This document shows, piece by piece, positions 2 to 48,836 of a DNA stretch of 64,000 nt (position 1 is the stretch's first letter; each line of letters begins with the position of its first letter). Origin of the DNA: an uncultured virus (IMG/VR IMGVR_UViG_3300008113_006701) (taxonomy: Duplodnaviria; Heunggongvirae; Uroviricota; Caudoviricetes); IMG/VR virus record IMGVR_UViG_3300008113_006701; one strand, given 5' to 3'. The notes below the pieces were generated by a model. It saw only the letters and a program-made list of their open reading frames with translations, was not told the origin of the DNA and did not search any database. A program made the translations under genes and the position numbers.

Positions 2-3000
2 GGAATAGTTATAGGTGAGGAAAATATTCAGTATACTAAAAAGGGAACTTGCCCTACATCTATAGTTACGCAAGACGTTGCATATTTTTATAAAAATGGA
101 TACCTTGTAAGAAGTCCTATACAAAAAATAGTTCCGGATAAAAGTACATCATATCCTTCAAAATTAATTTCATTATTAATATCGGAGCAAATAATTACAA
201 GTGCGGACGATGAATCTTTATTAGATCCTGCGGTAGGTAGTGCTAATTATTTTGCTCCGGGCGGAGATAGATTACAAATAAATTTAAATCTTGCAAGTTT
301 TGATTTAAATGCAAGCGATAAAGCCGATACAACTGAAGATCATATTCCTTTAGTCAAATTTAATAAAGGAGAAGTAGAATTTGTAACTGAAATAGTAACA
401 GATGGAGTACTGCAAACTCAATTAGCTGACCGAACATACGACGAATCCGGAAACTATGTAGTTAATGAATTTGTAATAACTACCGGCTCAACTTTAGATA
501 CAGATCCCAATTTAATTTTTAATATTTCTGCAGGTAAAGCATATATTGGAGGATATCCAGTAACATCGGTTGGGTCCACCGAATTATCTATTCCAAAACC
601 AACAACAACAGAAACAAAAACTGGATTTAATATAACCACTTCTCAAGGTAATTATATTAGAATTAAAGATTTAAAGGGAGCAATACCTAGCGGAGAATCT
701 ATAACTCAAGGCGAATTGTTTTTAGAATTACATAATGTAACCAATCCAACTGCTGCAAATTCTGCAAATACAAGAGTAGGTATATTAGCTGCAAAAGGAT
801 TAGAGTACGATAGTGCTTTGGGAGCTAATTCTGACGCTCAATATAGATTATTTTATCATTATTATTCTACAATAAAAGAAGCGCCCGCTACATGGGAAGC
901 TTGGTCTGCTAAATATAATATTCCTGTATTAGAAGGACAGTACATAGCAAATGTATTATATCAGAATATAGGTGGTACTCCTAATGTACAATTAGGAAAT
1001 TATGGTGCAAGTAAAGCAAATACATATGCATTGTTTAGAGAACCCGGAGTTGAGGAAGTAGTATATTGGTGGCAACAATATACAGGACCTGCAGCTCGCA
1101 ACATAGAAACAGTAAAACAAAATTTTGCGTTATCTATATTAAGTAATCCAACTAGTACCGATTATACAAGATTATTATCAAATACAAAATCATTCTTTAG
1201 AGTGGATAATGGCAGTCCTTTTAGTGATGGCTTGTTAAATGTTAAAAAGATAAAAAGTATTGTAGGTGTTTCAAATGAATTAACATCTCATGCTGTTTCA
1301 GAAACGTATACCGCTCCTTGGTTTTATGCAAACGTATCGGCTCAGGGAATGTCAAGTACCGGCGATTTACTCGTATTAGATCCTCGATCTGCAGATACTT
1401 TAGTATTTCCAATTTCTAAAAGTTATATAAAATCTTTAACTAATCTAAAAACCACATACAATAGAGTTATTAGAAATGCAGTAGTTACAGCAGGAACATA
1501 TACTAAAAGATTAACTTATCCCGAAACTTTTGCATTAGGAGATGGTTCCGTAGTTGCAAGTACTGCTAGAACAAATTTTATTGTTGTAGTAAAAACAGGG
1601 GCAACTTCATTAGTTCCATTGGGTGCATTTAATTTTGAAAGAGGATCCGTAACAATTTCCGGCGAATCATCTACTGCTATTATAAATTTAGGAGATCCTA
1701 CTTTTACAGGGTTAGTTGATATTTTATATGTTGTAGAATCAGATAGTTTACCATTTAGAACAAAAAATTTATTCACAGATCAATCTAAAGTTATAGATGT
1801 AGTAAATGCAGAGTATAACTATAGTTTAGGTATTGCGGATATAGATGTTACTGGAATATACAAACTAACAGATTATACAAAATTTAAAGGAGCTTGGTCT
1901 ACAGCAACTACATATGATTATAATCAATTTGTATTAAAAGATGGAAATTTATATAGAGCAAATGTTCCGTCATCTAATGTAGCAGTCACATATTCAAACG
2001 CATGGGTATCAGTTGCAAGTTATCCTTTACAATCTTTTGTTATATCTGACGGGCAAAAAGATGGTTGGTATGACCATGGGTATATAAAATATATTGGAGC
2101 GACCACAGCTATTCCTGGTAATGTTTTAGTTACTTATAACTACTTTACTCATACTGGAGATGGCCCTTGTACTGTAAATTCTTATCCTAGTTCTTATTAT
2201 AGAAACATAGGAGTTTATAAATCTAAAACAGACGGAAGATCATACAATTTAAGAGATTGTTTAGATTTTAGACCAAGAAGAGTTGATAATAGCCCGTATC
2301 TAAATTTTGATACTGCAGTTTTTCCAACATCCGCAGTAAACACAGAAGCAGATGTGACATATTATGTTGGACGAGTAGATAGAATATATGTTTCTAGAGC
2401 ATCAAAGAATTTTGATAATCCATATAATAATTTTTACTATGAGCCAGGTATAGAAACAACTGGAATTTCAGACGATCCAAATAAATCTGCAGTTGAAGAT
2501 CAATTAGATAAAACTAGATTGGCTATTGCAAAATTGATAATTCCTCCATATCCTAGAAATGCTACAGACGTAGTAATTCAATATGAAGATAATAAACGAT
2601 ATACTATGAAGGATATAGGAAAACTAGAAAAAACTACAATAAGATTAGATAAGGCAATTAAATTACATAGTGTAGAAATACAAGGGTTAAAAGCAACTAT
2701 TACTAATGATAATGGAGATGCATTATTAAAAACAGGCGTATTAGTTGAAAATTTTAATGATTTTAGTAAATCTGATTTTACCGATCCATATTTTAATTGT
2801 GCATTAAATACAAAAGCTGGCGAATGTTATCCCCTATTTGGTGCATATGATGCTCCTCTTAAAGTAGTTTCTGCATCAAATTATAATATTGCTAGAGATA
2901 TTATTACTGCAAAGTATGAAGAAGAAGTATATGCATCTCAACTTGAAGGAAATAGTGTAGTTAATCCAAATCCTGGAGCAGTTAATGACGGAAGAGGAAG

Positions 3001-14162: not shown

Positions 14163-16853
14163 ATGGCATTTCAGCTTTCACCTGGCGTTGTAGTAACCGA
14201 AGAAGATAGAACAACCTTTGTTCCTTCCGTTGCAACCACTGCAGGAGCGTTTACAGGCGCTTTCCAATGGGGCCCTGTGGAAGAAGTTACGACCGTAGAT
14301 TCGGAAAGTTCTTTAGTAAGTACTTTTGGTAGACCAAACGACACAACTGCGGGATATTTCTTTACCGCAGCAAATTTCTTGTCATATGGAAACAATCTTA
14401 AAGTTGTTCGTGTTGTAGATAAATCAACATCAAGAAACGCAGTTTCTACCCCCACAGGAATAATCACAGGAATTACCTTAGCTACAGATGTGGGTGGTCC
14501 AACTAATGTAACAACTACCACATTCTTAACAGCATCAAATATTAATGTTATTATTGAAAATCCAATTGCTGGCGGAACACAGGCTACTGCAAATGTTGTT
14601 TTAGAAACAACAGGGAATGTTGCAAAATTACTTATCAATAATGCAGGACAAGGATATAATACTGCGCCAAGCTTATCGTTTGAAGCAGCGGCAGGTGGTA
14701 CTGGAACTACCGCAACTGTTGCACTAGGGTCAGGGGCTCTTGCAAATATTTACGTTATAGATGGCGGTAATAATTATACATCCACATCTAATGTGGTAAT
14801 TCAAAATCAAGCAGCAACCGGTGCAAGAGCAAATCTAGTTGTTAGATATAAATTGATACAAGTAGGTGTGGCAAACGGCGGGACAAATTATGGGCCACAA
14901 GCAAATATACAATTTAGCGGAAATATTGCAGAAAATGGGACACATGCTACAGCATCGTTAGTTCTAAGCGGAGGAAATACAATAACAGGTATTGTAATTA
15001 CTAGTATGGGTTCAGGATATATATCTACTCCCAATGTAATTATTAATAGAAGAGATGGAAATACTGGTTCTGACGCTTCTGTTGTAGCAAATATAGGACA
15101 TGGTTATGTTGATAGCGTAGTAATTGATAATACTGGTCCCGGCGGATATAGTTATCAGCCAATTCTTACAGTTAACAGAAATAATAGTTTAGGTGGCGCA
15201 AATGCTGCGTTACAATCTCGTATCAATAGCGGCATTGCAAGTGTAACTTTAGTAGATACAGGTTCTGGGTATATTAGAAATCCTAATGTAACTGTTACAC
15301 CTGCCACATCTGACATTGGATTTATTACTACAAATGCAGATATATTAGCAGTAGTAGAATATTTAATTGACAGTGTAAATCTAATTAATCCTGGTACAGG
15401 ATATGGTTCTGCTCCTACAGTTACAGTTAGTACAGTTGCAGGATTTAGTACTCCTGCAAATGCAACAGTTACATCAAATCCTACACTAATTACAAATCGA
15501 GATTTTTATCAGGCAACTTATGAAAATGGATCTGCAACAGTTGGAGAATTTGCTGCTAAGTATCCCGGAGAATTAGGAAACTCTATTAGAGTTTCAATGG
15601 CGGATTCTAATACATTTAGCACATGGCAATATGCTGCTAATTTTGATTCTGCTCCAGGAACATCTGCATACGTTTCTGGTAAGAGTGGATCGTTGGACGA
15701 GATGCACGTTATTGTTGTGGATTCAAATGGAACTTGGTCAGGTACATCTGGTTATGTACTTGAAAAATTCTCATTCTTATCTAAAGCATCTGATGCTAAA
15801 AATTCCGATGGATCAACCAATTATTACAGAGACGTAATTAATAATCAATCTAATTATGTTTGGTGGATGGATCATCCTTCACAAGGTACAAACTGGGGAA
15901 CATCTGGTTCAAATAAAACATTTGCAGTATTAAGTTCTGCAGTTACAAATACTTTATCCGGCGGGGTTTCTTCAGATAGTGTTTCTTCAGGAAATGTATC
16001 AATTGGATATAATCTTTTCTCTAATGACGAATTGTATGATGTTAGCTTAATCCCAATGGGACCAACTACAGATGTATCAGTAGTTAATAGCGTTATTGGC
16101 ATTGCGTCAACCAGACGAGATGCTGTAGTATTTGTATCACCTCCATACACTTCAGTTGTTAATTCTACAACTCCTGCAGATAATATTGTTTCTTACAGAA
16201 ATACTTTAACAGATTCTTCTTATGCTGTTTTAGATTCTGGTTGGAAATATCAGTACGATCGTTATAACGACAAATATCGTTATGTTCCATTGAACGGGGA
16301 TATTGCAGGTCTTGCAGCAAGAACAGATTACATTGCAGATCCTTGGTTCTCTCCTGCGGGATATAATAGAGGTGTTATTAAGAATGTAGTTAAATTGGCA
16401 TATTCTCCATCCAAGACAGATAGAGATACATTGTACAAGAAGGGTGTAAATCCTGTAGTAACATTCCCAGGACAAGGAACATTGCTGTTTGGTGATAAAA
16501 CTCTACAATCAAGACCAAGCGCATTTGATCGTATTAACGTACGTAGATTGTTTATTGTTCTTGAAAAAGCAATTTCTACAGCATCTAAATTCCAGTTATT
16601 TGAATTTAATGATCCATTTACTCGCGGACAATTTAGAAACCTTGTAGAACCATTCTTAAGAGATGTACAAGGTCGCAGAGGTATTACAGACTTTAAAGTT
16701 GTTTGCGACGAAACAAACAACCCAGCTTCTGTAATTGATGGAAATCAATTTGTTGCAGATATTTACATCAAGCCTGCAAGATCGATTAACTTTATCCAGT
16801 TGAACTTTATAGCTACAAGAACTGGCGTATCTTTCGAAGAAGTAGGCGCATAA
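14163..16853 (+). CDS. gp18: Tail sheath protein gp18 with a large repeat insertion
   Basis: MAFQLSPGV, FQWGP, PWFSPAG, FDRINVRRLF, KPARSINFI; 896 aa. Confidence 0.97.
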   Translation: MAFQLSPGVVVTEEDRTTFVPSVATTAGAFTGAFQWGPVEEVTTVDSESSLVSTFGRPNDTTAGYFFTAANFLSYGNNLKVVRVVDKSTSRNAVSTPTGIITGITLATDVGGPTNVTTTTFLTASNINVIIENPIAGGTQATANVVLETTGNVAKLLINNAGQGYNTAPSLSFEAAAGGTGTTATVALGSGALANIYVIDGGNNYTSTSNVVIQNQAATGARANLVVRYKLIQVGVANGGTNYGPQANIQFSGNIAENGTHATASLVLSGGNTITGIVITSMGSGYISTPNVIINRRDGNTGSDASVVANIGHGYVDSVVIDNTGPGGYSYQPILTVNRNNSLGGANAALQSRINSGIASVTLVDTGSGYIRNPNVTVTPATSDIGFITTNADILAVVEYLIDSVNLINPGTGYGSAPTVTVSTVAGFSTPANATVTSNPTLITNRDFYQATYENGSATVGEFAAKYPGELGNSIRVSMADSNTFSTWQYAANFDSAPGTSAYVSGKSGSLDEMHVIVVDSNGTWSGTSGYVLEKFSFLSKASDAKNSDGSTNYYRDVINNQSNYVWWMDHPSQGTNWGTSGSNKTFAVLSSAVTNTLSGGVSSDSVSSGNVSIGYNLFSNDELYDVSLIPMGPTTDVSVVNSVIGIASTRRDAVVFVSPPYTSVVNSTTPADNIVSYRNTLTDSSYAVLDSGWKYQYDRYNDKYRYVPLNGDIAGLAARTDYIADPWFSPAGYNRGVIKNVVKLAYSPSKTDRDTLYKKGVNPVVTFPGQGTLLFGDKTLQSRPSAFDRINVRRLFIVLEKAISTASKFQLFEFNDPFTRGQFRNLVEPFLRDVQGRRGITDFKVVCDETNNPASVIDGNQFVADIYIKPARSINFIQLNFIATRTGVSFEEVGA

Positions 16854-27997: not shown

Positions 27998-28270
27998 ATG
28001 GAAACTAAAGAAGAAGAAATTATGCTCATTCTACAAGAAGAATGCGCAGAAGTAACTCAAGCAATTTCAAAATGTTTTCGCTTTGGTGTTGATAATTTTA
28101 AGCCAGGTAAACCGAAAACAAACAGGGAACATCTGGCTGAAGAATTGGGTGATCTACAAGCAATGATTGATTTGTGTATTAAATTTAATATTGTCGGCAG
28201 TGAACAGATCAGTATTGCAGCTGATAATAAAATTGCCAAACTTAAAAAATGGTCTAGTATATATGAATAA
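27998..28270 (+). CDS. MazG-like nucleotide pyrophosphohydrolase
   Basis: EECAEV...EELGDL. Confidence 0.75.
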   Translation: METKEEEIMLILQEECAEVTQAISKCFRFGVDNFKPGKPKTNREHLAEELGDLQAMIDLCIKFNIVGSEQISIAADNKIAKLKKWSSIYE

Positions 28271-29111
28271 ACTTAAGATATCAGAATTATTTTATAGCAT
28301 TCAGGGTGAAGGACGTTATATGGGCGTCCCTTCTGTCTTTTTAAGAACCTTTGGTTGTAATTTTACTTGTGGTGGCTTTGGCATGCCTAAGGGAGAACAA
28401 AGTAATGAACGATTTAAAATTGACGCAGAGTCTTTTAAAAGTTATAACGACTTGCCTTTGGTTCATACTGGATGTGATTCTTATGCTTCTTGGGATGTTC
28501 GTTTTAAGCATCTCAGTCCTGTGTTATCTGTTGACGCTATTGCCGACGCTATCGTGGATACGTTACCGTACAAGGAATGGAAAGACGAACATCTGGTAAT
28601 TACTGGAGGTGAACCTTTATTGGGATGGCAACGAGCTTATCCTGAATTATTAGAGCATTCTAAAATGCAATCTCTAAACGAATTGACTTTTGAGACAAAC
28701 GGTACACAAAACATATCAGAAGAATTTAGTACATATCTATTTGAAGAATGGACCAGATTTGGTAGGGAATACTTTAAATTAACATTTTCAGTATCTCCTA
28801 AATTATCTGTTTCGGGTGAATCTTGGGATGAAGCTATTAAGCCAGATGTTGTTATGCAATATAATTCTTTAGGTTATACTTATTTAAAGTTTGTAGTAGC
28901 AACAGAAGAAGATGCTCTAGAGGCAGAGGAGGCAGTAAATGCTTATCGTAAAGCGGGGTTTGGTGGTCCTGTTTATCTTATGCCTCTCGGTGGCACTGAG
29001 CAGTTGTACTCTCTTAATAATAGATCGGTTGCGGAATTGGCAATGAGAAAGGGTTGGAGGTATTCGGACAGACTCCAGATACCATTATTTAAAAATGCTT
29101 GGGGAACCTAA
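28263..29111 (+). CDS. queE: 7-carboxy-7-deazaguanine synthase QueE (radical SAM)
   Basis: ELFYSIQGEG, FLRTFGCNFTC...CDS, ITGGEPLL, ETNGT, SPKL; start ATG 28263. Confidence 0.92.
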   Translation: MNKLKISELFYSIQGEGRYMGVPSVFLRTFGCNFTCGGFGMPKGEQSNERFKIDAESFKSYNDLPLVHTGCDSYASWDVRFKHLSPVLSVDAIADAIVDTLPYKEWKDEHLVITGGEPLLGWQRAYPELLEHSKMQSLNELTFETNGTQNISEEFSTYLFEEWTRFGREYFKLTFSVSPKLSVSGESWDEAIKPDVVMQYNSLGYTYLKFVVATEEDALEAEEAVNAYRKAGFGGPVYLMPLGGTEQLYSLNNRSVAELAMRKGWRYSDRLQIPLFKNAWGT

Positions 29112-29317
29112 TGAATAAATTGGCATGGGACATTGAAAAGATGGGGCATGAAATGAGATCGCCCTATAATGATGGATTTACCACATTTGAAATTAAAAAG
29201 AAATTATATGAAATTAAATGGGCAGTTCTAAAACAATTAGACAACTCGCCTAATTATGTTGGTGAAAAAGAATGGCTTGAAGAACAGGAGACTAAAAATG
29301 GCAAAAAAGAAAATTGA
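29111..29317 (+). CDS. Hypothetical protein
   Basis: TAATG-coupled ORF, SPYNDGF motif. Confidence 0.55.
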   Translation: MNKLAWDIEKMGHEMRSPYNDGFTTFEIKKKLYEIKWAVLKQLDNSPNYVGEKEWLEEQETKNGKKEN

Positions 29318-29474
29318 ACTATACGCAGAAGCACCTTATAAACAAGGTTACGATTCTGCAAAAGCAAATGAAACATTTTATAATCCATATTCTGATATTG
29401 AAGATGCAGAAGCAGATGCAGAAGATTATCAGCGTGGATTTGAAAACGCACTAGAAGAAAATACTAATAAATAA
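29298..29474 (+). CDS. Small acidic hypothetical protein
   Basis: AGGAG RBS; YKQGY...NPY...YQRGF pattern. Confidence 0.55.
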   Translation: MAKKKIELYAEAPYKQGYDSAKANETFYNPYSDIEDAEADAEDYQRGFENALEENTNK

Positions 29475-29534
29475 TAATGTTACACAAAGGTAACAAAATT
29501 CAATCATCATATCCGTGTAAGGAAGGATTCAAAA

Positions 29535-30215
29535 ATGTCATACAACAAGACAAAAACTGACCCTGAGTTGGGTAATTTGGTTCACAAACATTTGGTGAAC
29601 ATGGGCGTAGAAACTCCCACATTTAAAACCTCATTAGATCGCAAAGACAAAATTGCTGAGATTGAGAAAAGCTTCAGCCATATTATGCAGGTGCTTGGTC
29701 TTGATCTTACAGATGATAGTCTTATTGAAACGCCTAAGCGTGTTGCCAAGATGTATGTTAATGAAATTTTCTGGGGACTTGATTATGACGCATTCCCTAA
29801 ATGTACAACTGTAGATAATAAAATGAAGTACAACGAAATGGTTGTAGAACGTAATGTTAATGTGCAATCAAATTGTGAGCATCACTTTGTAATTATTGAT
29901 GGTCTGGCTACAGTTGCGTATGTTCCAAAGCAAAAGGTATTGGGATTAAGTAAAATTAATCGTATTGTAGAATACTTCTCAAAGCGTCCTCAGATTCAAG
30001 AACGTCTAACAGAACAAATTTTTCACACACTACAATTTATTCTTGAGACTGATGATGTTGCGGTACTAATTGATGCACAACACTATTGTGTTAAATCTAG
30101 AGGTGTTGAAGATACCGGTAGTTCTACAGTAACAGTTCGTCTCGGTGGAGGATTTAAAACAGATCCATCTGCTAGAAACGAATTTTTAAGTATTGCGAGA
30201 ATGAGTAAAAAATAA
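29535..30215 (+). CDS. folE: GTP cyclohydrolase I FolE
   Basis: ETPKRVAKMY, CEHH, GLSKINRIV, QIQERLT, HYCVKSRGV. Confidence 0.96.
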   Translation: MSYNKTKTDPELGNLVHKHLVNMGVETPTFKTSLDRKDKIAEIEKSFSHIMQVLGLDLTDDSLIETPKRVAKMYVNEIFWGLDYDAFPKCTTVDNKMKYNEMVVERNVNVQSNCEHHFVIIDGLATVAYVPKQKVLGLSKINRIVEYFSKRPQIQERLTEQIFHTLQFILETDDVAVLIDAQHYCVKSRGVEDTGSSTVTVRLGGGFKTDPSARNEFLSIARMSKK

Positions 30216-33855: not shown

Positions 33856-35017
33856 GTTATATTATATGGGGTTGGAGCCCTATGAAGGTAGATATACTTT
33901 GCAGTTACAGCAATGGAGCGAGGATGCTTTCAAACGTCGAGGTATTGATTATGAAATAATTCATGGTGAAACTCTAGATGATTCGAAAGCAATTGTTACT
34001 GGTCAAGTATTAGATGCACATGGGCGTAGTTATTATTCTTTGACGCAAATGGCAAAGCTTGTTAAGAAAATGAAAGCAGGTGAGATTACCTGGGAAGATA
34101 CTATTTTCTTTGAAGATATGTTTACTCCCGGTATGGAAGTATTGCCATATATTATGGATCAATTGCCTTGGGAATATCAACCTCGAGTATTTGTTCGTTG
34201 TTTAGCTCAAACAATTGACCCCGATGATTTCCTTCATGTATGGGATATGCAAGAATGGATGGCACACTATGAAAAGATGACCGATCACTTTGTTACAGGA
34301 GTTCTTGCTTCAAATGAAGAAATGGTTGCCCATATTAAAATTGCAGGCTGGAAGGCTCCAATTTATAATATTTCTGGATTGGCATTTGATAAAGATGAAG
34401 TCCAAAGTCGAGTGAAAGAAATTAAACCTTTTATTAATCGTAAGAAGCGAGTAGTTTTTGCTGCTAGATTTGATCAAGAAAAGCAACCAGATTTCTTTAT
34501 GGACTTGATTGAACGATATGGACAAAATCACAGAGATGTAGAATTTGCTGTTCTATCAGGCGGACCATTACGTAGTAACGACCAAAAGTATATAGATCGT
34601 GCAAGAGAATTAGAAAAGACTGCCAATTTTAAAATCTATGAAAATCTTAAAAAGAACGAATACTACTGTCTGTTAGCAGATTCTAGAGTATTGTTTAATT
34701 GTGCTTTGCAGGATTGGGTAAGTAATACTGCATCAGAGGCAGATGCGTTAGGTACAAATTGTTTGTATCCCGCGTATAGATCATTCCCCGAAACATTTGC
34801 AAATGATGCAGAATGTTTATATATTCCTTGGTCAATGGATGATGCTTGTGAAAAATTAGATAAACTATTAGTCGCCCCTAGAAAAAGAATGGGTCAATTA
34901 TCTAATTGGACAACTGGCACAATTGATAGATGTTTAGACATTATGTTTGAAGAAAATTATCATTGGCATCGTGGATCTAAGGATTATAGAAATTATGTCT
35001 CAGAAACAAAATACTAA
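33848..35017 (+). CDS. GT-B glycosyltransferase
   Basis: FAARFDQEKQP, QDWVSNTASEA, YRSFPE. Confidence 0.75.
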   Translation: MSKLYYMGLEPYEGRYTLQLQQWSEDAFKRRGIDYEIIHGETLDDSKAIVTGQVLDAHGRSYYSLTQMAKLVKKMKAGEITWEDTIFFEDMFTPGMEVLPYIMDQLPWEYQPRVFVRCLAQTIDPDDFLHVWDMQEWMAHYEKMTDHFVTGVLASNEEMVAHIKIAGWKAPIYNISGLAFDKDEVQSRVKEIKPFINRKKRVVFAARFDQEKQPDFFMDLIERYGQNHRDVEFAVLSGGPLRSNDQKYIDRARELEKTANFKIYENLKKNEYYCLLADSRVLFNCALQDWVSNTASEADALGTNCLYPAYRSFPETFANDAECLYIPWSMDDACEKLDKLLVAPRKRMGQLSNWTTGTIDRCLDIMFEENYHWHRGSKDYRNYVSETKY

Positions 35018-36026
35018 AACAGTAATTGTTACAGGAGCCGCCGGTTATATCGGTGGTTCTATTTGTATTGAATTAAAGAAACAGGGATATAAAGTAATAG
35101 GTATTGATCGACGCAAATTGCCAGATCATCTAGAACAATATGTAGACCAATTTGTTTGCGAATGTTTTACGCATCCTTTTTCTTTAGAACATATTGAAAA
35201 AGAACCTATAGGAATTATACATTGTGCTGGCACTAGTTTAGTTGGTCCTAGTGTAATAAACCCTTGGGAATATTATGATAACAATGTAAGTAAAACTTTA
35301 AAGTATTTAGATTACATTCGTAGATGGGCTCCTACAACTAAATTTATTTTTAGTAGTAGTGCTTCGGTATATGGGCAGCATTCATCAAATCATGCTATTT
35401 TTGAAAGCTCTACTACCGCACCTATTTCGCCATACGGCGAATCTAAATTAATGGTTGAACAAATATTACATTCGTTCAATAAAGCTTATAAATTAGATTA
35501 CGTTTCTTTTAGATACTTCAATGCTTGCGGAGCAGTTGAAGGCGGCATCCATGGTCAAGAACCAGATGCTACTCACATATTTGCGAAACTGTTTGAAGCA
35601 GCTATATCAAATGAACCATTTACTATGTATGGTGCAGACTATAATACTAAAGATGGAACTTGTGTTCGAGACTATGTCCATGTTACCGATATTGCGAAAG
35701 CGCACATCTTTGCTATTGAGAATAATACCAAAGGGATATATAATATAGGATCATTGAAAGGTTATTCAAATCTTCAGATTTATAAAGCAGTAGATGATTA
35801 TCTAATAAAGAAAAAAAGAATTGATAAAAGTATTGTTATGCTTGTTGAAAAGGCAAGAGAAGGTGATCCTGCAATACTAATTGCAAATTCTTCAAAGTTA
35901 AAACGAGCAACTTCTTGGAAAACAGAAAAAAATCTAAACAGTATAATTGAAGATTTACATGATTGGTACTATTCAGATACATTCAAGAAAATGCAACAGA
36001 GGTCTTCCGACGCTCATCCCTCTTAA
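34995..36026 (+). CDS. galE: UDP-glucose 4-epimerase (GalE-like)
   Basis: TGAAGYIG, FSSSASVYG, YGESK, RYFNACGA, DGTCVRDYVHV. Confidence 0.88.
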   Translation: MSQKQNTKTVIVTGAAGYIGGSICIELKKQGYKVIGIDRRKLPDHLEQYVDQFVCECFTHPFSLEHIEKEPIGIIHCAGTSLVGPSVINPWEYYDNNVSKTLKYLDYIRRWAPTTKFIFSSSASVYGQHSSNHAIFESSTTAPISPYGESKLMVEQILHSFNKAYKLDYVSFRYFNACGAVEGGIHGQEPDATHIFAKLFEAAISNEPFTMYGADYNTKDGTCVRDYVHVTDIAKAHIFAIENNTKGIYNIGSLKGYSNLQIYKAVDDYLIKKKRIDKSIVMLVEKAREGDPAILIANSSKLKRATSWKTEKNLNSIIEDLHDWYYSDTFKKMQQRSSDAHPS

Positions 36027-36067: not shown

Positions 36068-36547
36068 ATGGCAAAATATATCTCAACTAAAACTTATAAA
36101 CAAATTGGACCGGTAGCATATAGACAATGGAGAGCAGACAGTCATTGTAATTTAATTCATGGTTATGCTTTATCATTTCATTTTGAATTCGAATGTGATA
36201 CTTTAGATGCTCGCAATTGGTGTATGGACTTTGGTGGTCTTAAACCCTTAAAAGGACATCTAGAAGATTGGTTCGATCACACATTACTTGTAGCACAAGA
36301 TGATCCTATGCGAGAACATCTTTTGGAACTAGGTAAACTTAAACTTGCGAAAATAACAGAGGTGGAGAAAACAGGTTGTGAAGGTATTGCTAATTTTTTG
36401 TATGAGTATGTTAACACTATCTTCTTGCCTGCATATGGCAAATCCGAAGCAGATAGAATCTGGTGTTGCAAGGTTGAAGTACGAGAGACCGATGCGAATA
36501 TGGCAATGAGGGTCGGTCATCGTGAAGACAATGAATTCGTGGATTAA
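36068..36547 (+). CDS. queD: 6-carboxy-5,6,7,8-tetrahydropterin synthase QueD
   Basis: HCNLIHGY, MDFGGLK, FDHT, VEVRET; GGAGG RBS before ATG 36068. Confidence 0.9.
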   Translation: MAKYISTKTYKQIGPVAYRQWRADSHCNLIHGYALSFHFEFECDTLDARNWCMDFGGLKPLKGHLEDWFDHTLLVAQDDPMREHLLELGKLKLAKITEVEKTGCEGIANFLYEYVNTIFLPAYGKSEADRIWCCKVEVRETDANMAMRVGHREDNEFVD

Positions 36548-37109: not shown

Positions 37110-38174
37110 ATGAAAATAGCATTAGTTACAGATACTCACTTTGGGGCAAGATCAGACTCCCAACAATTTGATGCATACTTTAAAAAGTTCTATGATGATA
37201 TTTTCTTTCCCGAATTAAAAAAGAGAAAAATTAATCAAATTATTCATTTAGGTGATTGTTTTGATCGCAGAAAATATATCAATTTTAATTCGTTAAAATC
37301 TTGTAGATCATATTTCTTTGAAGAAGCCTACAATCGCGATATTGATATAGATATGATTGTTGGTAATCATGATACATTTTTTAAAAATACAAATGATGTA
37401 AATTCGCCGAATCTGCTATTGGGGGAATATTCGAATCTAACTACCTATGATAAAGCAGATATTATTACCTATGACAATCTAAATATTTTATTGATGCCCT
37501 GGATATGTGCTGACAATTGGGAACATTCTTTACAGCTAATTAAATCTGGCGCATCCAAAGTATGTTTTGGTCATTTGGAACTTGCTGGGTTTGTGATGTT
37601 TAAAGGACAAGAAACTCATATTGATAATTCGGGAATGGACCCTAGTTTTTTTAAAGACTACGATCTTGTCTGCTCAGGACATTTTCACCACAAGCATAGT
37701 AAAGGACATATCAAATATATTGGCAATCCATATCAATTATTCTGGAATGACTATGAGGATGAAAGAGGGTTTCATATTTTTGATACAAAGACACTGGAAT
37801 TAGAATTCATTAAGAATCCCTATACTATATTTGAAAAGTATTACTATGATGATGAAAAAAATGATCCTAGTTCTGTAGACACTAGCATTTTTACTAATAA
37901 GTTGTTAAAATTAATAGTTGTTAATAAAAAAGATTACTATAAATTTGATAAGTTTGTAGAGGCATTGTATAAAGAGAATCCAATTGAATTAAAAATTATT
38001 GAAGATTTTTCTGAGTTTGAATCTGAGGCTATTGATGAAAATATAGACTTAGAAGATACTATGACTTTATTAACTAATTATGTAGATGGTGTAGAGACAG
38101 ATGCCGATAAAGACAAACTAAAAAGCATTCTCAAAACTCTATACGTTGAAGCACAGAACTACGAGGACGCATGA
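37110..38174 (+). CDS. gp47: Recombination endonuclease gp47 (Mre11-like)
   Basis: TDTHFG, LGDCFDRRK, GNHD, SGHFH. Confidence 0.96.
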   Translation: MKIALVTDTHFGARSDSQQFDAYFKKFYDDIFFPELKKRKINQIIHLGDCFDRRKYINFNSLKSCRSYFFEEAYNRDIDIDMIVGNHDTFFKNTNDVNSPNLLLGEYSNLTTYDKADIITYDNLNILLMPWICADNWEHSLQLIKSGASKVCFGHLELAGFVMFKGQETHIDNSGMDPSFFKDYDLVCSGHFHHKHSKGHIKYIGNPYQLFWNDYEDERGFHIFDTKTLELEFIKNPYTIFEKYYYDDEKNDPSSVDTSIFTNKLLKLIVVNKKDYYKFDKFVEALYKENPIELKIIEDFSEFESEAIDENIDLEDTMTLLTNYVDGVETDADKDKLKSILKTLYVEAQNYEDA

Positions 38175-39886
38175 TAAAATTTACAAACATCAAATGGAAA
38201 AACTTTTTATCTACCGGTGCTCAGTTTACTGAAGTAAAACTAAATAAAATATCTACTACTTTAATCGTAGGAGAAAACGGTGCGGGCAAAAGTACTATTC
38301 TAGATGCCATATGTTTTGTACTATTCAATAAGCCATTCAGAAGTATCAATAAGCCTCAGTTGATGAATAGTATCAACGGCAAAAATTTAGAAGTACACTT
38401 AGAATTTAGTATCGGTAAAAAAGATTACAGAATTGTACGAGGAATAAAACCTACTATTTTTGAAATCTATGTAGATGGCGTATTACTTAATCAAGATGCT
38501 GCCGCAAGAGATTATCAAAAATATCTTGAAGACGGTATTCTAAAACTAAATTATAAATCATTCACTCAAATTGTTATTTTAGGTAGTGCATCTTTTACTC
38601 CTTTTATGCAATTGCCTGTATCTCATAGACGAGAAATTATTGAGGATATTTTAGATATCCAAATTTTCACGGTTATGAATTCTGTACTAAAAGATAAACA
38701 GGCAGAAATAAAAACCAAAATAACAGAATTAGATACTGCAATTGACCTTGGTAAAAACAAAGTTAAACTGCAACAACAGTATATTGTTAATCTTGAGAAT
38801 GATAAGCAGAAGAAAGTTGAAGATGTACAAAAACGAATACTTGAAACGACTGATGAGATATCACAGCTTAATGCCAGAATCTTTTCAGAAAAGGAAACAG
38901 AAGCTAATCTCAAATCCTCGATTTCGGACTCAGTTGAGAAACGTAACAAGCGTACGGAAATGGGAAATCTTATTAGAAAACTTTCCGAACGAATTACGTC
39001 GCATGAAAATAGCAAACAATTTTACGTCGAACATGACGTATGCCCGACATGTAGCCAAGGTCTTCATGATGATCACAAACACTCCGCTATCTCACTTCAT
39101 ACACACAAACTCGAAGAAATACGGACAGCAGTTCAAACCCTTACCGTTCAACACAAAGATATCGAAACTAGACTTGATGAGATTGCTGTTATCGAAGAGA
39201 AAATATCTGAACATAAGAGCACTATCATCGAACTCAGTGCATCAATTATTGCAAGCCAAAACTACATCAATAAGTTACAAGGAGACCTTTCAGGCAGCAC
39301 TGTTACGGAAACCAATTTGCTCTCAGAAAAGGCAATACTTAAAGATCTGGCAAAAGACGTGGTACAACACGCCGAGGCAAAAAGCCAAGTTACTGAGGAA
39401 AAACACTACCTCGATATCGCGTCTGTACTATTAAAAGATACAGGCATTAAAACTAAAATTATTCGACAGTATCTTCCTGTCATTAATAAATTAGTTAACA
39501 AGTATTTACAGGCAATGGATTTCTTTTGTCACTTTGAACTCGACGAAACATTCAATGAAAAAATAAAGTCAAGACATCGTGACGAATTTTCATACGCATC
39601 TTTTAGTGAGGGAGAAAAGCAACGAATAGATTTGGCTTTGCTTTTCACTTGGAGAACTATTGCTAAAATGAAAAATTGTGCTAGCACAAACATCTTGTTA
39701 CTTGATGAAGTATTTGATTCTTCTTTGGATGTTAACGGAACAGACTATGTAATGAATCTAATAAATACTCTAGGAGAAGAGACTAATGTATTCGTCATTA
39801 GTCATAAAGGAGACCTTCTATTTGATAAATTTAGAAGTGTTATTAAATTTGAAAAGAATCAGAATTTTTCGAGAATTGCAACTTAA
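38171..39886 (+). CDS. gp46: Recombination ATPase gp46 (Rad50-like)
   Basis: GENGAGKST, CPTC hook, FSEGEK, LLDEVFD. Confidence 0.97.
   Translation: MIKFTNIKWKNFLSTGAQFTEVKLNKISTTLIVGENGAGKSTILDAICFVLFNKPFRSINKPQLMNSINGKNLEVHLEFSIGKKDYRIVRGIKPTIFEIYVDGVLLNQDAAARDYQKYLEDGILKLNYKSFTQIVILGSASFTPFMQLPVSHRREIIEDILDIQIFTVMNSVLKDKQAEIKTKITELDTAIDLGKNKVKLQQQYIVNLENDKQKKVEDVQKRILETTDEISQLNARIFSEKETEANLKSSISDSVEKRNKRTEMGNLIRKLSERITSHENSKQFYVEHDVCPTCSQGLHDDHKHSAISLHTHKLEEIRTAVQTLTVQHKDIETRLDEIAVIEEKISEHKSTIIELSASIIASQNYINKLQGDLSGSTVTETNLLSEKAILKDLAKDVVQHAEAKSQVTEEKHYLDIASVLLKDTGIKTKIIRQYLPVINKLVNKYLQAMDFFCHFELDETFNEKIKSRHRDEFSYASFSEGEKQRIDLALLFTWRTIAKMKNCASTNILLLDEVFDSSLDVNGTDYVMNLINTLGEETNVFVISHKGDLLFDKFRSVIKFEKNQNFSRIAT
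38742..39434 (+). CDS. Candidate overprinted gene in the +1 frame of the gp46 coiled coil
   Basis: 230 stop-free codons; gp46 Leu codons here are mostly CTT/CTC rather than TTA; start codon uncertain. Confidence 0.4.
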   Translation: MTLVKTKLNCNNSILLILRMISRRKLKMYKNEYLKRLMRYHSLMPESFQKRKQKLISNPRFRTQLRNVTSVRKWEILLENFPNELRRMKIANNFTSNMTYARHVAKVFMMITNTPLSHFIHTNSKKYGQQFKPLPFNTKISKLDLMRLLLSKRKYLNIRALSSNSVHQLLQAKTTSISYKETFQAALLRKPICSQKRQYLKIWQKTWYNTPRQKAKLLRKNTTSISRLYY

Positions 39887-45081: not shown

Positions 45082-46095
45082 ATGACAAACAAAGTTGCTC
45101 TTATTACGGGCATTACTGGGCAAGACGGTTCTTATCTTGCAGAACTTCTTTTATCTAAAGGCTACGAAGTACACGGTATTGTTCGTCGTAGTTCTTCTAT
45201 GAACACGGGTCGGATAGACCACATCTATTCAAATCCAAATTTGCATCTTCACTATGGCGATGTTACAGATTCTCTTTCCATTATGAATGTTTTAAAGAAA
45301 CATAATCCTGCAGAAATCTATAACCTTGCAGCACAAAGCCATGTTAAAGTATCATTTGATACTCCGGAATATACAGCAATGGTTGATGGCTTAGGTACTT
45401 TAAAGATTTTAGAATCTGTTAGATTGTTAGGGTTAGAAAAAACAACTAAAATTTATCAGGCATCTACATCTGAACTATATGGATTAGTTCAGGAAACCCC
45501 TCAAAAAGAAACCACACCATTCTATCCCCGCAGTCCGTATGGTGTTGCTAAGTTGTATGCTTATTGGATTGTTAAGAACTATCGTGAGTCATACGGTATG
45601 TTTGCTTGTTCTGGTATTTTGTTTAATCACGAATCTCCTCGCAGGGGGTTTAACTTCGTAACTAAAAAGATAGTTAATGGTTTAGAGGCGGTTAGTGCTG
45701 GTCGTCAAGATTGCTTAACATTAGGAAATTTAACAGCGTTAAGAGATTGGGGCCATGCTAAAGATTATGTCGAAGCAATGTGGTTAATGCTCCAACAAGA
45801 TAAGCCGGAAGATTTTGTTATTGCTACCGGTGAGCAATATACTGTTAAACAGTTTGTCGAACATTGCGCCCCGTATTTTGCATTGAAAATACGTTGGGAA
45901 GGAGAAGGATTGGATGAGGTTGGTATTGATGAACATACTAAACGAATTGTTGTTCGAGTCGATCCTAAATATTTTCGTCCAGCAGAAGTTCAAACATTGT
46001 TGGGAGATTCTTCAAAGGCTAAGAGTGTGCTCGGTTGGCAACCTAAACATTCTTTTGATGACTTGGTTGAAGACATGTGCATAAATTTTGAATAA
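45082..46095 (+). CDS. gmd: GDP-mannose 4,6-dehydratase
   Basis: [39 protein letters not shown]. Confidence 0.96.
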
Positions 46096-46732
46096 TATGT
46101 TTCCTCCATCATACAAAGATTTAAATAAAGTAATTACTGAAAAATATTTAAACTATAATAATGGTTTTTATATTGAGGTAGGTGGTGCAGATGGTTATAC
46201 GCAAAGCAACACTTGGCATCTTGAAATGTACAAACAATGGTCGGGTATATTAATTGAACCAAATCCTGTTGCGGCGGAACAATGCAGAGATAGTAGACCA
46301 AATTCTTCCGTATTTAATTATGCTTTAGTTGGTAATGATTTTAAAGGCGATACTATAAAAATGTTGTATCGTACAGTATACGGCGGAGATCCTGGTTTAA
46401 TGACTTCTACTGTAGATTCTCCTATTCGGCAAAATAAAGAATGGATCGCGCCTGCTACTGAAAATGATAAAACTGAAGAATTTGAAATTCAGGTAGCCAC
46501 ATTAACTGATATTTTAGAATCTCAAAATGTGACAGATATAGATTTCTTTTCTTTAGATGTTGAGGGATATGAACTAGAAGTGTTGAGAGGATTAGACTTG
46601 AAAAAGTTTACCCCTAAAGTTATTTTAGTCGAATGGCATTTAGATTTTGAAGAAATTAAAAAAGTACTAGATGAAACTCACGTATATGCAGAACAATTAA
46701 CTAGACATGATTATGTCTTTTTGGCGAGGTAA
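46088..46732 (+). CDS. FkbM-family methyltransferase
   Basis: [22 protein letters not shown]. Confidence 0.85.
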
Positions 46733-46734
46733 TA

Positions 46735-47670
46735 ATGGAAAAAAATAGTAAAATTTTTGTAGCAGGACATAACGGATTAGTAGGTTCGGCAATTGTTCGG
46801 AAATTAAAAGAAGAAGGTTATACAAATCTTATTCTTAGATCAAAAAACGAATTAGATCTTCGAGATCAACGAGCAGTTAAAAACTTCTTTAGTATTGAAA
46901 TGCCCGAGTATGTATTTTTGGCTGCTGCTAAAGTTGGTGGCATCAATTGGAACTGGACAAATCCTGGTGAATTTATTTATGATAATTTACAGATTCAAAC
47001 CAATGTTATAGATTCTGCTTATAAAAACAAATGTAAAAAATTATTGTTTCTAGGTTCTGCTTGTATCTATCCGAAGGTTACTCCTCAACCGATTAAAGAA
47101 GAATATCTTCTTACTGCTCCATTGGAACCTACAAATGAAGGATATGCTTTAGCAAAAATTACTGGTCTAAGAATGTGCGAATACTATAGACGTCAGTATG
47201 GGTTCAATGCTATTAGTTGTATGCCTGCAAACCTATATGGACCGAATGATAATTTTATTCCCGAACATGGACACGTTATTCCGGGTATCATTACTAAGAT
47301 GCATAATGCTACGATTAATGGCGAAGATAGTATTGAATGTTGGGGCGATGGCACACCTACACGAGAATTTTTATATGTAGATGATTTAGCAGACGCTTGT
47401 TTTTGGCTGATGCAAAATTATGACGAAAAAGAATTTGTAAATGTCGGAAGCGATGAAGAACTTACAATTAAAGATTTAGTAAATCGACTTAAAAAAGAAT
47501 TTGGGTTTAAAGGTAAAGTTGTCTGGAACACTGATAAACCAAACGGAACACCTAGACGCAAAATGGATAACACAAAACTAAAAGAATTAGGTTGGTCTGC
47601 AAAGGTTAGTTTTGATGATGGATTGAAACGCACTATGGATTGGTATAAAAAAGAAAAGGGGTTGTTATGA
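46735..47670 (+). CDS. fcl: GDP-L-fucose synthase / ColC-like epimerase-reductase
   Basis: GHNGLVGS, AAAKVGGI, GSACIYP, YALAK, NLYGPNDNF. Confidence 0.93.
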   Translation: MEKNSKIFVAGHNGLVGSAIVRKLKEEGYTNLILRSKNELDLRDQRAVKNFFSIEMPEYVFLAAAKVGGINWNWTNPGEFIYDNLQIQTNVIDSAYKNKCKKLLFLGSACIYPKVTPQPIKEEYLLTAPLEPTNEGYALAKITGLRMCEYYRRQYGFNAISCMPANLYGPNDNFIPEHGHVIPGIITKMHNATINGEDSIECWGDGTPTREFLYVDDLADACFWLMQNYDEKEFVNVGSDEELTIKDLVNRLKKEFGFKGKVVWNTDKPNGTPRRKMDNTKLKELGWSAKVSFDDGLKRTMDWYKKEKGLL

Positions 47671-48836
47671 GATGGCCTTTAATGGGTGAGACAATCACCT
47701 TCGCAGATAGATTAAAAATGGCGCACTTTGCGCTAACCGCAAAGAAATTTACCTTCGGCGAAAAGGTAAAACAATTTGAGAATGAATGGAGTGAATGGCT
47801 TGGCGCTAAACATTCTTTATACGTTTCGTCAGGAAGCACTGCAAACTTCTTATTGGTTGCTGCAGTTATGGAATTGTATGGATTAAAACGAGGCGACAAA
47901 GTATTGTTGCCCGCTTGCACTTGGATGACTAATGTTGCTCCTATTATGCAGCTAGGACTTGAGCCAGTATTCTGTGATATTAATCTAGATAATTTTAGTT
48001 TTGATCTAGAAGATGCTCATAAAATATCAAAGAAACATGATATTAAAATGGTCTTTATTACTCACTTGCTAGGATTTTCTGCAGACAATGAAGGTTTAAA
48101 AAGACTCTTCCCGAATGCTTTATTCATAGATGATGTATGCGAATCTCACGGATGCACGGGTTCGGATGGTATTAAACGAGGAGCAGACAGCTTAGGTGGA
48201 ACCTTTAGTTTTTATTTTGGTCACCATATGTCTACAGTAGAAGGCGGAATGATTTCTACAAATAATACTGATCTATATGACTTGATGAAAATTAAACGCA
48301 GTCATGGTATGGCAAGAGAGTCTATTCGGTATGATGACTATGCACAACTATACCCGGATATAGATAAACAATTCTTGTTTGTTACCGATGGATATAATTT
48401 TAGAAATCATGAGATTTGTGCTGTACTTGGTATATCTCAATTGAAGAGATTAGATAGTATGATTGAGATTAGAAATAGAAATCATTACTTATTTACTAAG
48501 ATTATAGACAAATATCCTAATCTGTTTTATAATATTAAAAATGCACACACGAACAGTAGCTTTTGTTTGCCCTTTATTTGTAAGTCCAGAGAAGTTATGC
48601 TTGCAATGAAAACAGTATTTAAAGATGGTGGAATTGAATATAGACCAGTTGTTGCTGGCAATCTATTATCGCAACCTTTCCTTAAAGACTATAAAATAGA
48701 AACAAGTAAGAAACAGACGAATGCAGACTTAGTGAATTCTCAAGGTGTGTATATAGGCAACAACCATTTTGTAACCGAACAGGATATGGAATATTTAGAA
48801 AAAGTAGTGGAGGATATTAATGAAATCTTTAGGTGA
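47667..48836 (+). CDS. colD: DegT/DnrJ-family PLP enzyme, ColD-like GDP-4-keto-6-deoxymannose 3-dehydratase
   Basis: SSGSTAN, DDVCESHG, SFYFGHHMSTVEGG with His at the usual Schiff-base Lys; 389 aa. Confidence 0.7.
   Translation: MRWPLMGETITFADRLKMAHFALTAKKFTFGEKVKQFENEWSEWLGAKHSLYVSSGSTANFLLVAAVMELYGLKRGDKVLLPACTWMTNVAPIMQLGLEPVFCDINLDNFSFDLEDAHKISKKHDIKMVFITHLLGFSADNEGLKRLFPNALFIDDVCESHGCTGSDGIKRGADSLGGTFSFYFGHHMSTVEGGMISTNNTDLYDLMKIKRSHGMARESIRYDDYAQLYPDIDKQFLFVTDGYNFRNHEICAVLGISQLKRLDSMIEIRNRNHYLFTKIIDKYPNLFYNIKNAHTNSSFCLPFICKSREVMLAMKTVFKDGGIEYRPVVAGNLLSQPFLKDYKIETSKKQTNADLVNSQGVYIGNNHFVTEQDMEYLEKVVEDINEIFR

Follow-up and report, generated by a model that had tools for sequence, protein, structure and literature searches.

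A probable protein-coding gene nested in the +1 frame of the gp46 coiled coil of an uncultured T4-like phage

The stretch of DNA analyzed here, henceforth the window, is a 64,000-nucleotide (nt) record of an uncultured virus (IMG/VR IMGVR_UViG_3300008113_006701), whose gp46 gene (38171..39886, + strand) encodes a Rad50/SbcC-like ATPase of 571 amino acids (aa). We propose that the coiled-coil and zinc-hook segment of this gene in a T4-like (Kyanoviridae-like) phage very probably carries a second protein-coding gene, nested in the +1 frame at 38823..39434 on the same strand and overprinted on gp46. Judged from the sequences of relatives, selection is holding the +1 frame stop-free, keeping an ATG at its head and suppressing synonymous change in gp46 over the first ~135 codons across a whole clade. 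Frame-specific stop avoidance, a conserved start codon, constraint setting in at that start, and sister lineages devoid of these features together make a nested gene the best explanation, and each of the rival explanations weighed below fails at least one test.

An open +1 frame and its avoidance of stop codons

Counted from stop to stop, the +1 frame of gp46 runs for 233 codons without termination (38733..39431, + strand; gene nt 562..1261). An earlier reading of the window, made without database searches (the sequence-only reading), had described this frame as open for some 230 codons, from the 230-aa open reading frame (ORF) with a TTG start at 38742..39434 (+ strand) in its ORF list; the opening is borne out by our count, and the first 27 codons of that ORF are not conserved as coding in relatives. 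On either side the frame is rich in stops, with 22 across 560 nt on the 5' side and 10 across 455 nt on the 3' side, and the +2 frame of gp46 holds 69. Among the 70 window genes, as delimited by crude gene calls, it is indeed the longest alternative-frame opening, as had been claimed: the next +1 run reaches 86 codons and the next longest run in any frame is an antisense one of 192 codons. This antisense stop-free run sits in the tail sheath gene (14163-16853).

The synonymous-shuffling check that had been proposed for this frame was carried out with three null models, all of which keep the gp46 protein, namely permutation of synonymous codons within the gene, resampling from the codon usage of the window, and resampling that additionally respects next-base context. 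The longest +1 runs under these models average 55, 47 and 48 codons, with maxima of 125, 114 and 115, respectively, and a run of 233 codons was never produced in 3000 shuffles under any of the three. The codon choice held responsible for the opening was likewise recovered: leucines preceding a purine are encoded by CTT or CTC at 12 of 14 positions in codons 191-421, whereas elsewhere in gp46 the count is 4 of 21, and the remaining 69 genes together give 181 of 1004 (Fisher 1e-7), and the leftover xTA/xTG codons of the region all precede C or T.

A scan of viral contigs for gp46 yielded 78 loci, 63 of them spanning the full gene. The 15 partial loci were left out, except for the contigs of two of them (L047 and L072 among our locus handles), which were re-entered as L084 and L082. 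In 34 of the 63 full-length loci the +1 frame is open over at least 140 codons at the corresponding position; the 29 without such a run include one (L054) which, as extracted, has 13 in-frame stops, is mis-framed and was subsequently dropped. Further, a profile of the +1 product, searched against 1.84 billion representative proteins, returned only two matches, both of them +1 ORFs nested in further gp46 homologues, and these led to a third open group (L079-L083). After deduplication, 30 of 45 distinct gp46 rows are open (142-240 codons), with gp46 proteins down to ~61% identical to that of the window, and 15 are closed (longest +1 run 42-96 codons). The frame is filled with stops in sister lineages, in outgroups and in Methylophilales phage Melnitz, in whose gp46 the longest alternative sense run is 70-76 codons and no nested gene is annotated. 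In the short contig L084 (1843-3088) the gp46 frame stops after 345 codons and the +1 frame continues, which reflects either a frameshift or an assembly error.

In a tree computed from the coiled-coil columns, the open rows form two clades, one of 24 rows and another of six, with support from the Shimodaira-Hasegawa-like approximate likelihood ratio test (SH-aLRT) of 97 and 94, respectively. Both belong to an unresolved crown that also contains six closed rows (L019/L024, L028, L049, L050 and L058), all outgroups are closed, and a tree built from the head domains only presents the same picture. The open frame may have had a single origin, with the qualification that the gp46 trees, being unrooted, do not separate its gain from its loss. 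Three of the closed crown rows (L049, L050 and L058) keep an ATG at the start column of the nested frame, with the frame behind it full of stops; this ATG may be older than the nested gene or may be a survivor of its loss.

The distribution of stops was then evaluated at risk sites, defined as positions where the gp46 residue and the next base permit a synonymous codon that would create a +1 stop, in 15 open and 12 closed representatives; for these and the synonymous counts below, the core is taken as gp46 codons 218-352. In the open representatives, stops are used at none of 283 risk sites in the core, at 23 of 155 in the tail of the nested frame and at 484 of 922 in the flanks. In the closed representatives the corresponding counts are 108 of 279, 53 of 122 and 286 of 741. 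Thus, the test for an open frame in gp46 homologues, which the sequence-only reading had suggested, comes out in favor of its claim, with the frame open at the same place in two thirds of the distinct rows and, in the open representatives, free of stops at every core risk site. Permuting synonymous codons within codons 218-352 only, 2.9-6.5 stops would be expected where none is seen in all 15 open sequences (P 0-0.015), while six closed sequences agree with expectation. The +2 frame of the relatives is never open for more than 52 codons. An antisense gene was considered as the real cause of the opening and rejected: the antisense runs are irregular, have shifting borders and are not conserved.

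Start codon, synonymous constraint and the predicted product

The proposed gene comprises 203 codons, from the ATG at 38823 (MYKNEY...) to a TAA at 39432-39434. Alignments, synonymous suppression and the lack of stops at risk sites delimit within it a conserved core of ~138 residues (38823..39236, + strand), which ends at about ...SKRKYLNI RA and overlaps gp46 codons 218 to ~355. This is followed by a variable basic tail (39237..39431, + strand), whose length differs among relatives and in which +1 stops, as counted above, are still under-used. In three relatives (L018, L053 and L056) the nested ORF ends directly after the core (135-141 aa) and the region of the tail holds 6-7 +1 stops; the nested gene may be decaying in these, or they may represent its minimal form.

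The ATG at 38823 (gene nt 653, MYK[NS]EYL...) sits in a single alignment column across 26 of the 30 open rows, and the remaining four have a start within one codon of it: two (L009 and L056) have an ATG one codon upstream, and two (L051 and L052) a TTG one codon downstream, preceded by a strong Shine-Dalgarno (SD) sequence (duplex energies of -8.4 and -12.2 kcal/mol). The sequence-only reading had offered two ATG candidates, of which this one stands; the other, with the product beginning MISRRK (38799), is found in only 6 of the 27 rows listed. In many relatives the interval between the two is interrupted by a +1 stop, as far down as gene nt 646-648, i.e., immediately ahead of the conserved ATG, and these stops rule out both the TTG at 38742 and the ATG at 38799 as general starts.

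Synonymous divergence was measured as the fraction of identical-residue codons that differ, in nine phylogenetically independent open pairs and six closed pairs. In the open pairs it falls to 0.208 in the core as compared with 0.354 elsewhere (Fisher 3e-17), with seven of the nine pairs individually below p 0.05, whereas the closed pairs reveal no drop (0.437 against 0.424, p 0.7). Hence, the suppression of synonymous variation that had been anticipated for gp46 homologues exists, in the open clade only and limited to the core; the tail of the nested gene (0.38, with 0.35 for the rest) is not suppressed. Since the amino acid identity of gp46 in the open pairs is lower in the core than elsewhere, a recent exchange of the segment cannot account for the synonymous drop.

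A sliding profile of observed to expected synonymous change (15-codon windows, 22 main-clade rows) places the onset of this constraint at the ATG. The ratio stands at 1.1-1.2 over codons 203-213, declines to 0.73 at codon 218, which contains the ATG, and to 0.49 at codon 228, reaches its minimum of 0.25 at codon 343 and is back at 1.07 by codon 358. At the level of single codons, third positions are free through codon 217, after which GAT is used in 21 of 22 rows, GTA in 19 of 22, and CAA, ATA and GAA in all 22. An instructive case is codon 224 (38840..38842, + strand), which is CTT (Leu) in 12 and TCT (Ser) in 10 of these rows, a two-base swap that changes the gp46 residue and keeps Tyr-Leu in the +1 frame (TAC TTG or TAT CTG). 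Milder synonymous dips are seen in the main clade outside the nested gene, at gp46 codons ~178-188 (0.70) and ~453-458 (0.71), corresponding to ~38700-38735 and ~39527-39545 of the window.

The predicted +1 products are 135-239 aa long among relatives and 203 aa in the window, and their first ~138 residues align well within the main clade, the remainder being variable. The window product has an isoelectric point (pI) of 11, with 42 lysines and arginines and seven acidic residues, and its counterparts in relatives have pI values of 10.5-12.0 and 19-28% lysine plus arginine. Of the very basic, helical protein postulated earlier, the basic character is thus confirmed, with the reservation that any such coiled coil, read in this frame, would yield such a charge, and the helices are predicted at low confidence only. 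No conserved hydrophobic segment was detected: the maximum of a 19-residue Kyte-Doolittle scan remains below 1.0 in 25 of 27 products, and in the other two it reaches 1.6-1.8 at a non-conserved place. The product is similar neither to the frame-0 gp46 nor to anything else in the window.

Weighing the nested gene against other explanations

Several results weigh against the proposal of a nested protein-coding gene. Two open pairs (L079-L083 and L018-L053) lack synonymous suppression. A ratio in the manner of OLGenie, dNN/dNS, gives 0.64 for the core (confidence interval 0.54-0.76), which is not separated from the 0.63 of the N-terminal flank used as control, the closed-clade core being at 0.84. 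In a BLOSUM62 test of whether changes synonymous in gp46 are conservative in the +1 frame, the core (+0.22) scores below the flank control (+0.34). Identity in the core relative to frame 0 amounts to 0.79-0.89 in the +1 frame; that of the +2 frame also goes up there, to 0.71-0.75, so part of the signal is plain nucleotide conservation.

The initiation signals add to these points. The window ATG is preceded by a weak SD sequence, at -2.4 kcal/mol, where 69 window genes have a median of -5.4; of the 1538 ATGs of the window, 43% match or beat it. Across the relatives the values range from -0.9 to -12.2 kcal/mol; some are strong (-6 to -12), and about half of the open ones are as weak as that of the window. 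The median of the open rows is better than that of the closed ones (-3.0 as against -0.9, p 6e-4) by a statistic that ignores relatedness. The mRNA is weakly structured at the ATG in the open rows (-3.0 versus a gene mean of -5.9), and equally so in the closed ones (-3.6 versus -6.1). As for the product, its identity between groups is down to 17-30%, indicating fast divergence, and the same frame in closed lineages has a lysine plus arginine fraction of 0.25, making the charge a by-product of the frame. AlphaFold2, run with 27 and 33 sequences, gave no confident fold (predicted local distance difference test 57.7 and 58.7; predicted template modeling score 0.24 and 0.19). No homologue of the product was found in Pfam, PHROGs, a word-indexed protein search, the ESM Atlas or, by tblastn, among deposited phage genomes, the last of which also means that no cultured phage with the ORF was encountered there.

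The alternative that survives these comparisons best, which we nonetheless regard as unlikely, is that the frame is open or its nucleotides conserved for a reason other than a protein product, be it that translation in the +1 frame regulates gp46 expression or mRNA stability, or that the segment harbors a nucleotide element. It would accommodate the failure of the dNN/dNS and BLOSUM62 tests to do better than their controls, the concomitant rise of +2 identity, a tail that is open without sequence conservation and the lack of a predicted fold. However, a nucleotide element leaves unexplained both the conserved ATG and a stop avoidance that is specific to one frame over 135-240 codons, with no stop at any of the 283 core risk sites. 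Moreover, over the 120 nt under strongest constraint RNAalifold finds no consensus pairs (0), the exchange of Leu and Ser at codon 224 spares the +1 residues, and +1 identity exceeds +2 identity throughout the core.

A shade less likely again is a programmed ribosomal frameshift from gp46, which would yield, in place of a separate protein, a fusion in which a basic +1 tail follows the N-terminal ATPase lobe of Rad50. The frame does lie inside gp46 and on its strand, the window has 30 open codons of it upstream of the ATG, and the SD sequence ahead of that ATG is weak. Against this stand the +1 stops that many relatives have right before the ATG, the fact that both synonymous constraint and product conservation begin at the ATG as opposed to upstream of it, and the conservation of the ATG itself, visible in the use of GAT and not GAC in all but one of the 22 rows. 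Further, the frame is not open from a conserved shift site, though no formal search for a slippery motif was made. Because of the stops before the ATG and the constraint that starts there, separate initiation fits better than frameshifting. The sequence-only reading had proposed selection for either a hidden gene or a frameshift product: the shuffles, the open frame, the stop avoidance and the synonymous suppression support such selection, and a hidden gene is the better fit of the two.

It is highly improbable that the opening is a chance or compositional by-product of coiled-coil residues and local codon usage, inherited from one ancestor. Coiled coils are of low complexity and the rows are related rather than independent, but the notion is rejected by shuffles that keep the protein and even the codons of the region itself, and in closed lineages, whose coiled coil is similar in kind, 39% of risk sites hold a stop-forming codon. 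The open lineages, none of which has a core stop, differ from each other at 35-47% of flank synonymous sites, and this flank divergence contradicts a very young open clade. Equally improbable is a relic, i.e., a coiled coil once read in the +1 frame from which two compensating frameshifts moved gp46 away, as nothing beyond the open frame speaks for it, no lineage has a frame-0 gp46 to which the +1 products are significantly similar (best E 0.04, the database being small), and a relic would decay, whereas this frame stays open across deep divergence through codon choice that avoids stops.

The gp46 locus, known overlapping genes and implications

The window, along which the G+C content is 30-38%, is part of a T4-like myovirus, as indicated by PHROG matches to the portal, major head protein, sheath, tube and terminase, as well as UvsY, a UvsW-like helicase, the gp55 late sigma factor and queuosine-pathway genes. 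Among deposited phages, Melnitz (Kyanoviridae) has the closest gp46, with 50% amino acid identity, followed by cyanomyophages (46-48%); with the nearest deposited gp46 only 50% identical, the lineage is taken to be uncultured. Upstream of gp46 lies gp47, a gene for an Mre11/SbcD-like nuclease (37110..38174, + strand; Pfam Metallophos_2; PHROG 100, SbcD-like subunit, E 5.6e-107), and gp46 itself matches Pfam SMC_N and AAA_23 as well as PHROG 77 (SbcC-like subunit, E 5.9e-173). The 3' end of gp47 overlaps the start of gp46 by 4 nt, which makes a shared transcript probable.

The zinc-hook motif CPTC of gp46 (codons 291-294; 39041..39052, + strand) falls in the middle of the overlap, in line with the statement of the sequence-only reading that the frame spans the zinc hook, and the +1 frame there reads ...YARHVAK...; the Pfam Rad50_zn_hook match is weak (residues 288-318, 16.3 bits, below the cut-off of 24.3). 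With its ATPase lobes, long coiled coil, CPTC hook and a preceding, adjoining Mre11-like gene, the window gp46 has the features of Rad50, SbcC and T4 gp46, and the pair resembles T4 gp46/gp47 and Mre11-Rad50/SbcCD. It differs from its nearest deposited relative, the gp46 of Melnitz, in that the nested frame is open in the window and closed in Melnitz. An inverted repeat (39023-39050), scored as terminator-like on the minus strand, lies just 5' of the zinc-hook codons and extends into them.

An internal T4-type late promoter was considered and rejected: the motif TATAAATA occurs five times in the window and never inside gp46, and a sigma-70-like scan found 19 matches, with 19.6 expected from shuffles. 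All five TATAAATA matches are on the + strand (14105, 20884, 22084, 23479 and 61323), and four of them stand just 5' of structural genes, namely sheath, scaffold, major head protein and a tube-like gene. With 5 matches against 14.3 in shuffles, the motif is under-represented in the window, which suggests its avoidance elsewhere. Among the other genes of the window, a QueE-like radical SAM gene, a GTP cyclohydrolase and a QueD-like gene (28263-30215 and 36068-36547) constitute a 7-deazaguanine/queuosine-type pathway, a set that hints at DNA modification. Additionally, three nucleotide-sugar epimerase-like genes and an aminotransferase (34995-36026 and 45082-48836) suggest a sugar-modification module.

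In mechanistic terms, ribosomes would initiate independently at the ATG at 38823 on a gp47-gp46 messenger, in a context that is A-rich, weakly structured and endowed with a weak to moderate SD sequence. The resulting protein, of 135-239 aa, would be very basic and probably helical, its ~138-aa core conserved and its tail under loose constraint. We propose that the gene was born de novo by overprinting on a substitution-tolerant coiled coil, gp46 being the older gene and the nested product being without relatives outside this position. On the grounds of its charge and its presumed co-expression, the product could be an accessory protein that binds nucleic acid or is directed at the host, produced alongside the Mre11/Rad50 nuclease, a guess that we put forward as possible but would sooner bet against. 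A more specific version, about which we are distinctly doubtful, is that the de novo protein now works with the Mre11/Rad50 machine as a DNA-end-binding or regulatory partner, supplied in fixed proportion from the same messenger.

Long nested genes are a textbook feature of tiny viruses; to our knowledge, they have rarely been sought in large T4-like phages, and gene callers forbid them. The classic examples are found in phiX174 (Microviridae), where gene E lies within D and gene B within A, in a 5.4-kilobase (kb) single-stranded DNA genome under strong size constraint. The gene proposed here is like these in sharing the strand of an older gene and lying wholly inside it in the +1 frame, and would, by our reading, likewise have its own internal start and be overprinted on that gene. 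It differs in that its host is a large T4-like double-stranded DNA (dsDNA) phage, with contigs of relatives of up to 222 kb, and in that the gene hosting it encodes a Rad50-type ATPase. Further, the E protein of phiX174 is a membrane lysis protein, unlike the product considered here, which has no conserved hydrophobic segment.

A second point of comparison is Rz1 of phage lambda, nested within Rz, its functional partner, with which it forms the spanin pair: the Rz1 product is a short lipoprotein that carries a signal sequence and lipobox. Rz1 is embedded in certain clades only, with other phages having separate genes or none. The proposed gene shares with it the status of a nested, clade-restricted +1 gene of a dsDNA phage. 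However, its product is 135-239 aa long and very basic, and no transmembrane segment, signal sequence or lipobox of the kind that marks an embedded lysis gene was noticed in the +1 products, though no dedicated signal-peptide prediction was made.

Long overlapping genes under purifying selection are reported from bacteria and viruses (PMC8850804, PMC8227390, PMC6188560), among them antisense genes of Pseudomonas with evidence of translation. The present case is like these in combining an unexpectedly long alternative-frame ORF, conservation in relatives and a signature of constraint, and unlike the Pseudomonas cases in being on the same strand, situated in a core recombination gene of a phage and known from sequence alone. 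Among the titles and abstracts that full-text searching on overlapping genes returned, subscription journals being outside its coverage, none dealt with an overlapping gene in gp46 or Rad50.

The finding would place a nested gene within a core recombination gene, where it has been hidden from annotation to the extent of being called only twice in 1.84 billion proteins. The comparative evidence for it is unusually clean, consisting of an open clade, closed sister clades and constraint from the start codon onward. It would thereby provide a datable case of de novo gene birth, in which the ancestral, stop-filled state is still visible in relatives, and coiled-coil segments suggest themselves as good places to search for further hidden genes. 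Synonymous recoding or codon optimization of gp46 in such phages would ruin the second gene. If the product should indeed be a partner of Mre11/Rad50, then the SMC-type coiled coil, repetitive and tolerant of substitution, would act as a nursery of new genes, and would do so even where a large dsDNA phage has genome space to spare.

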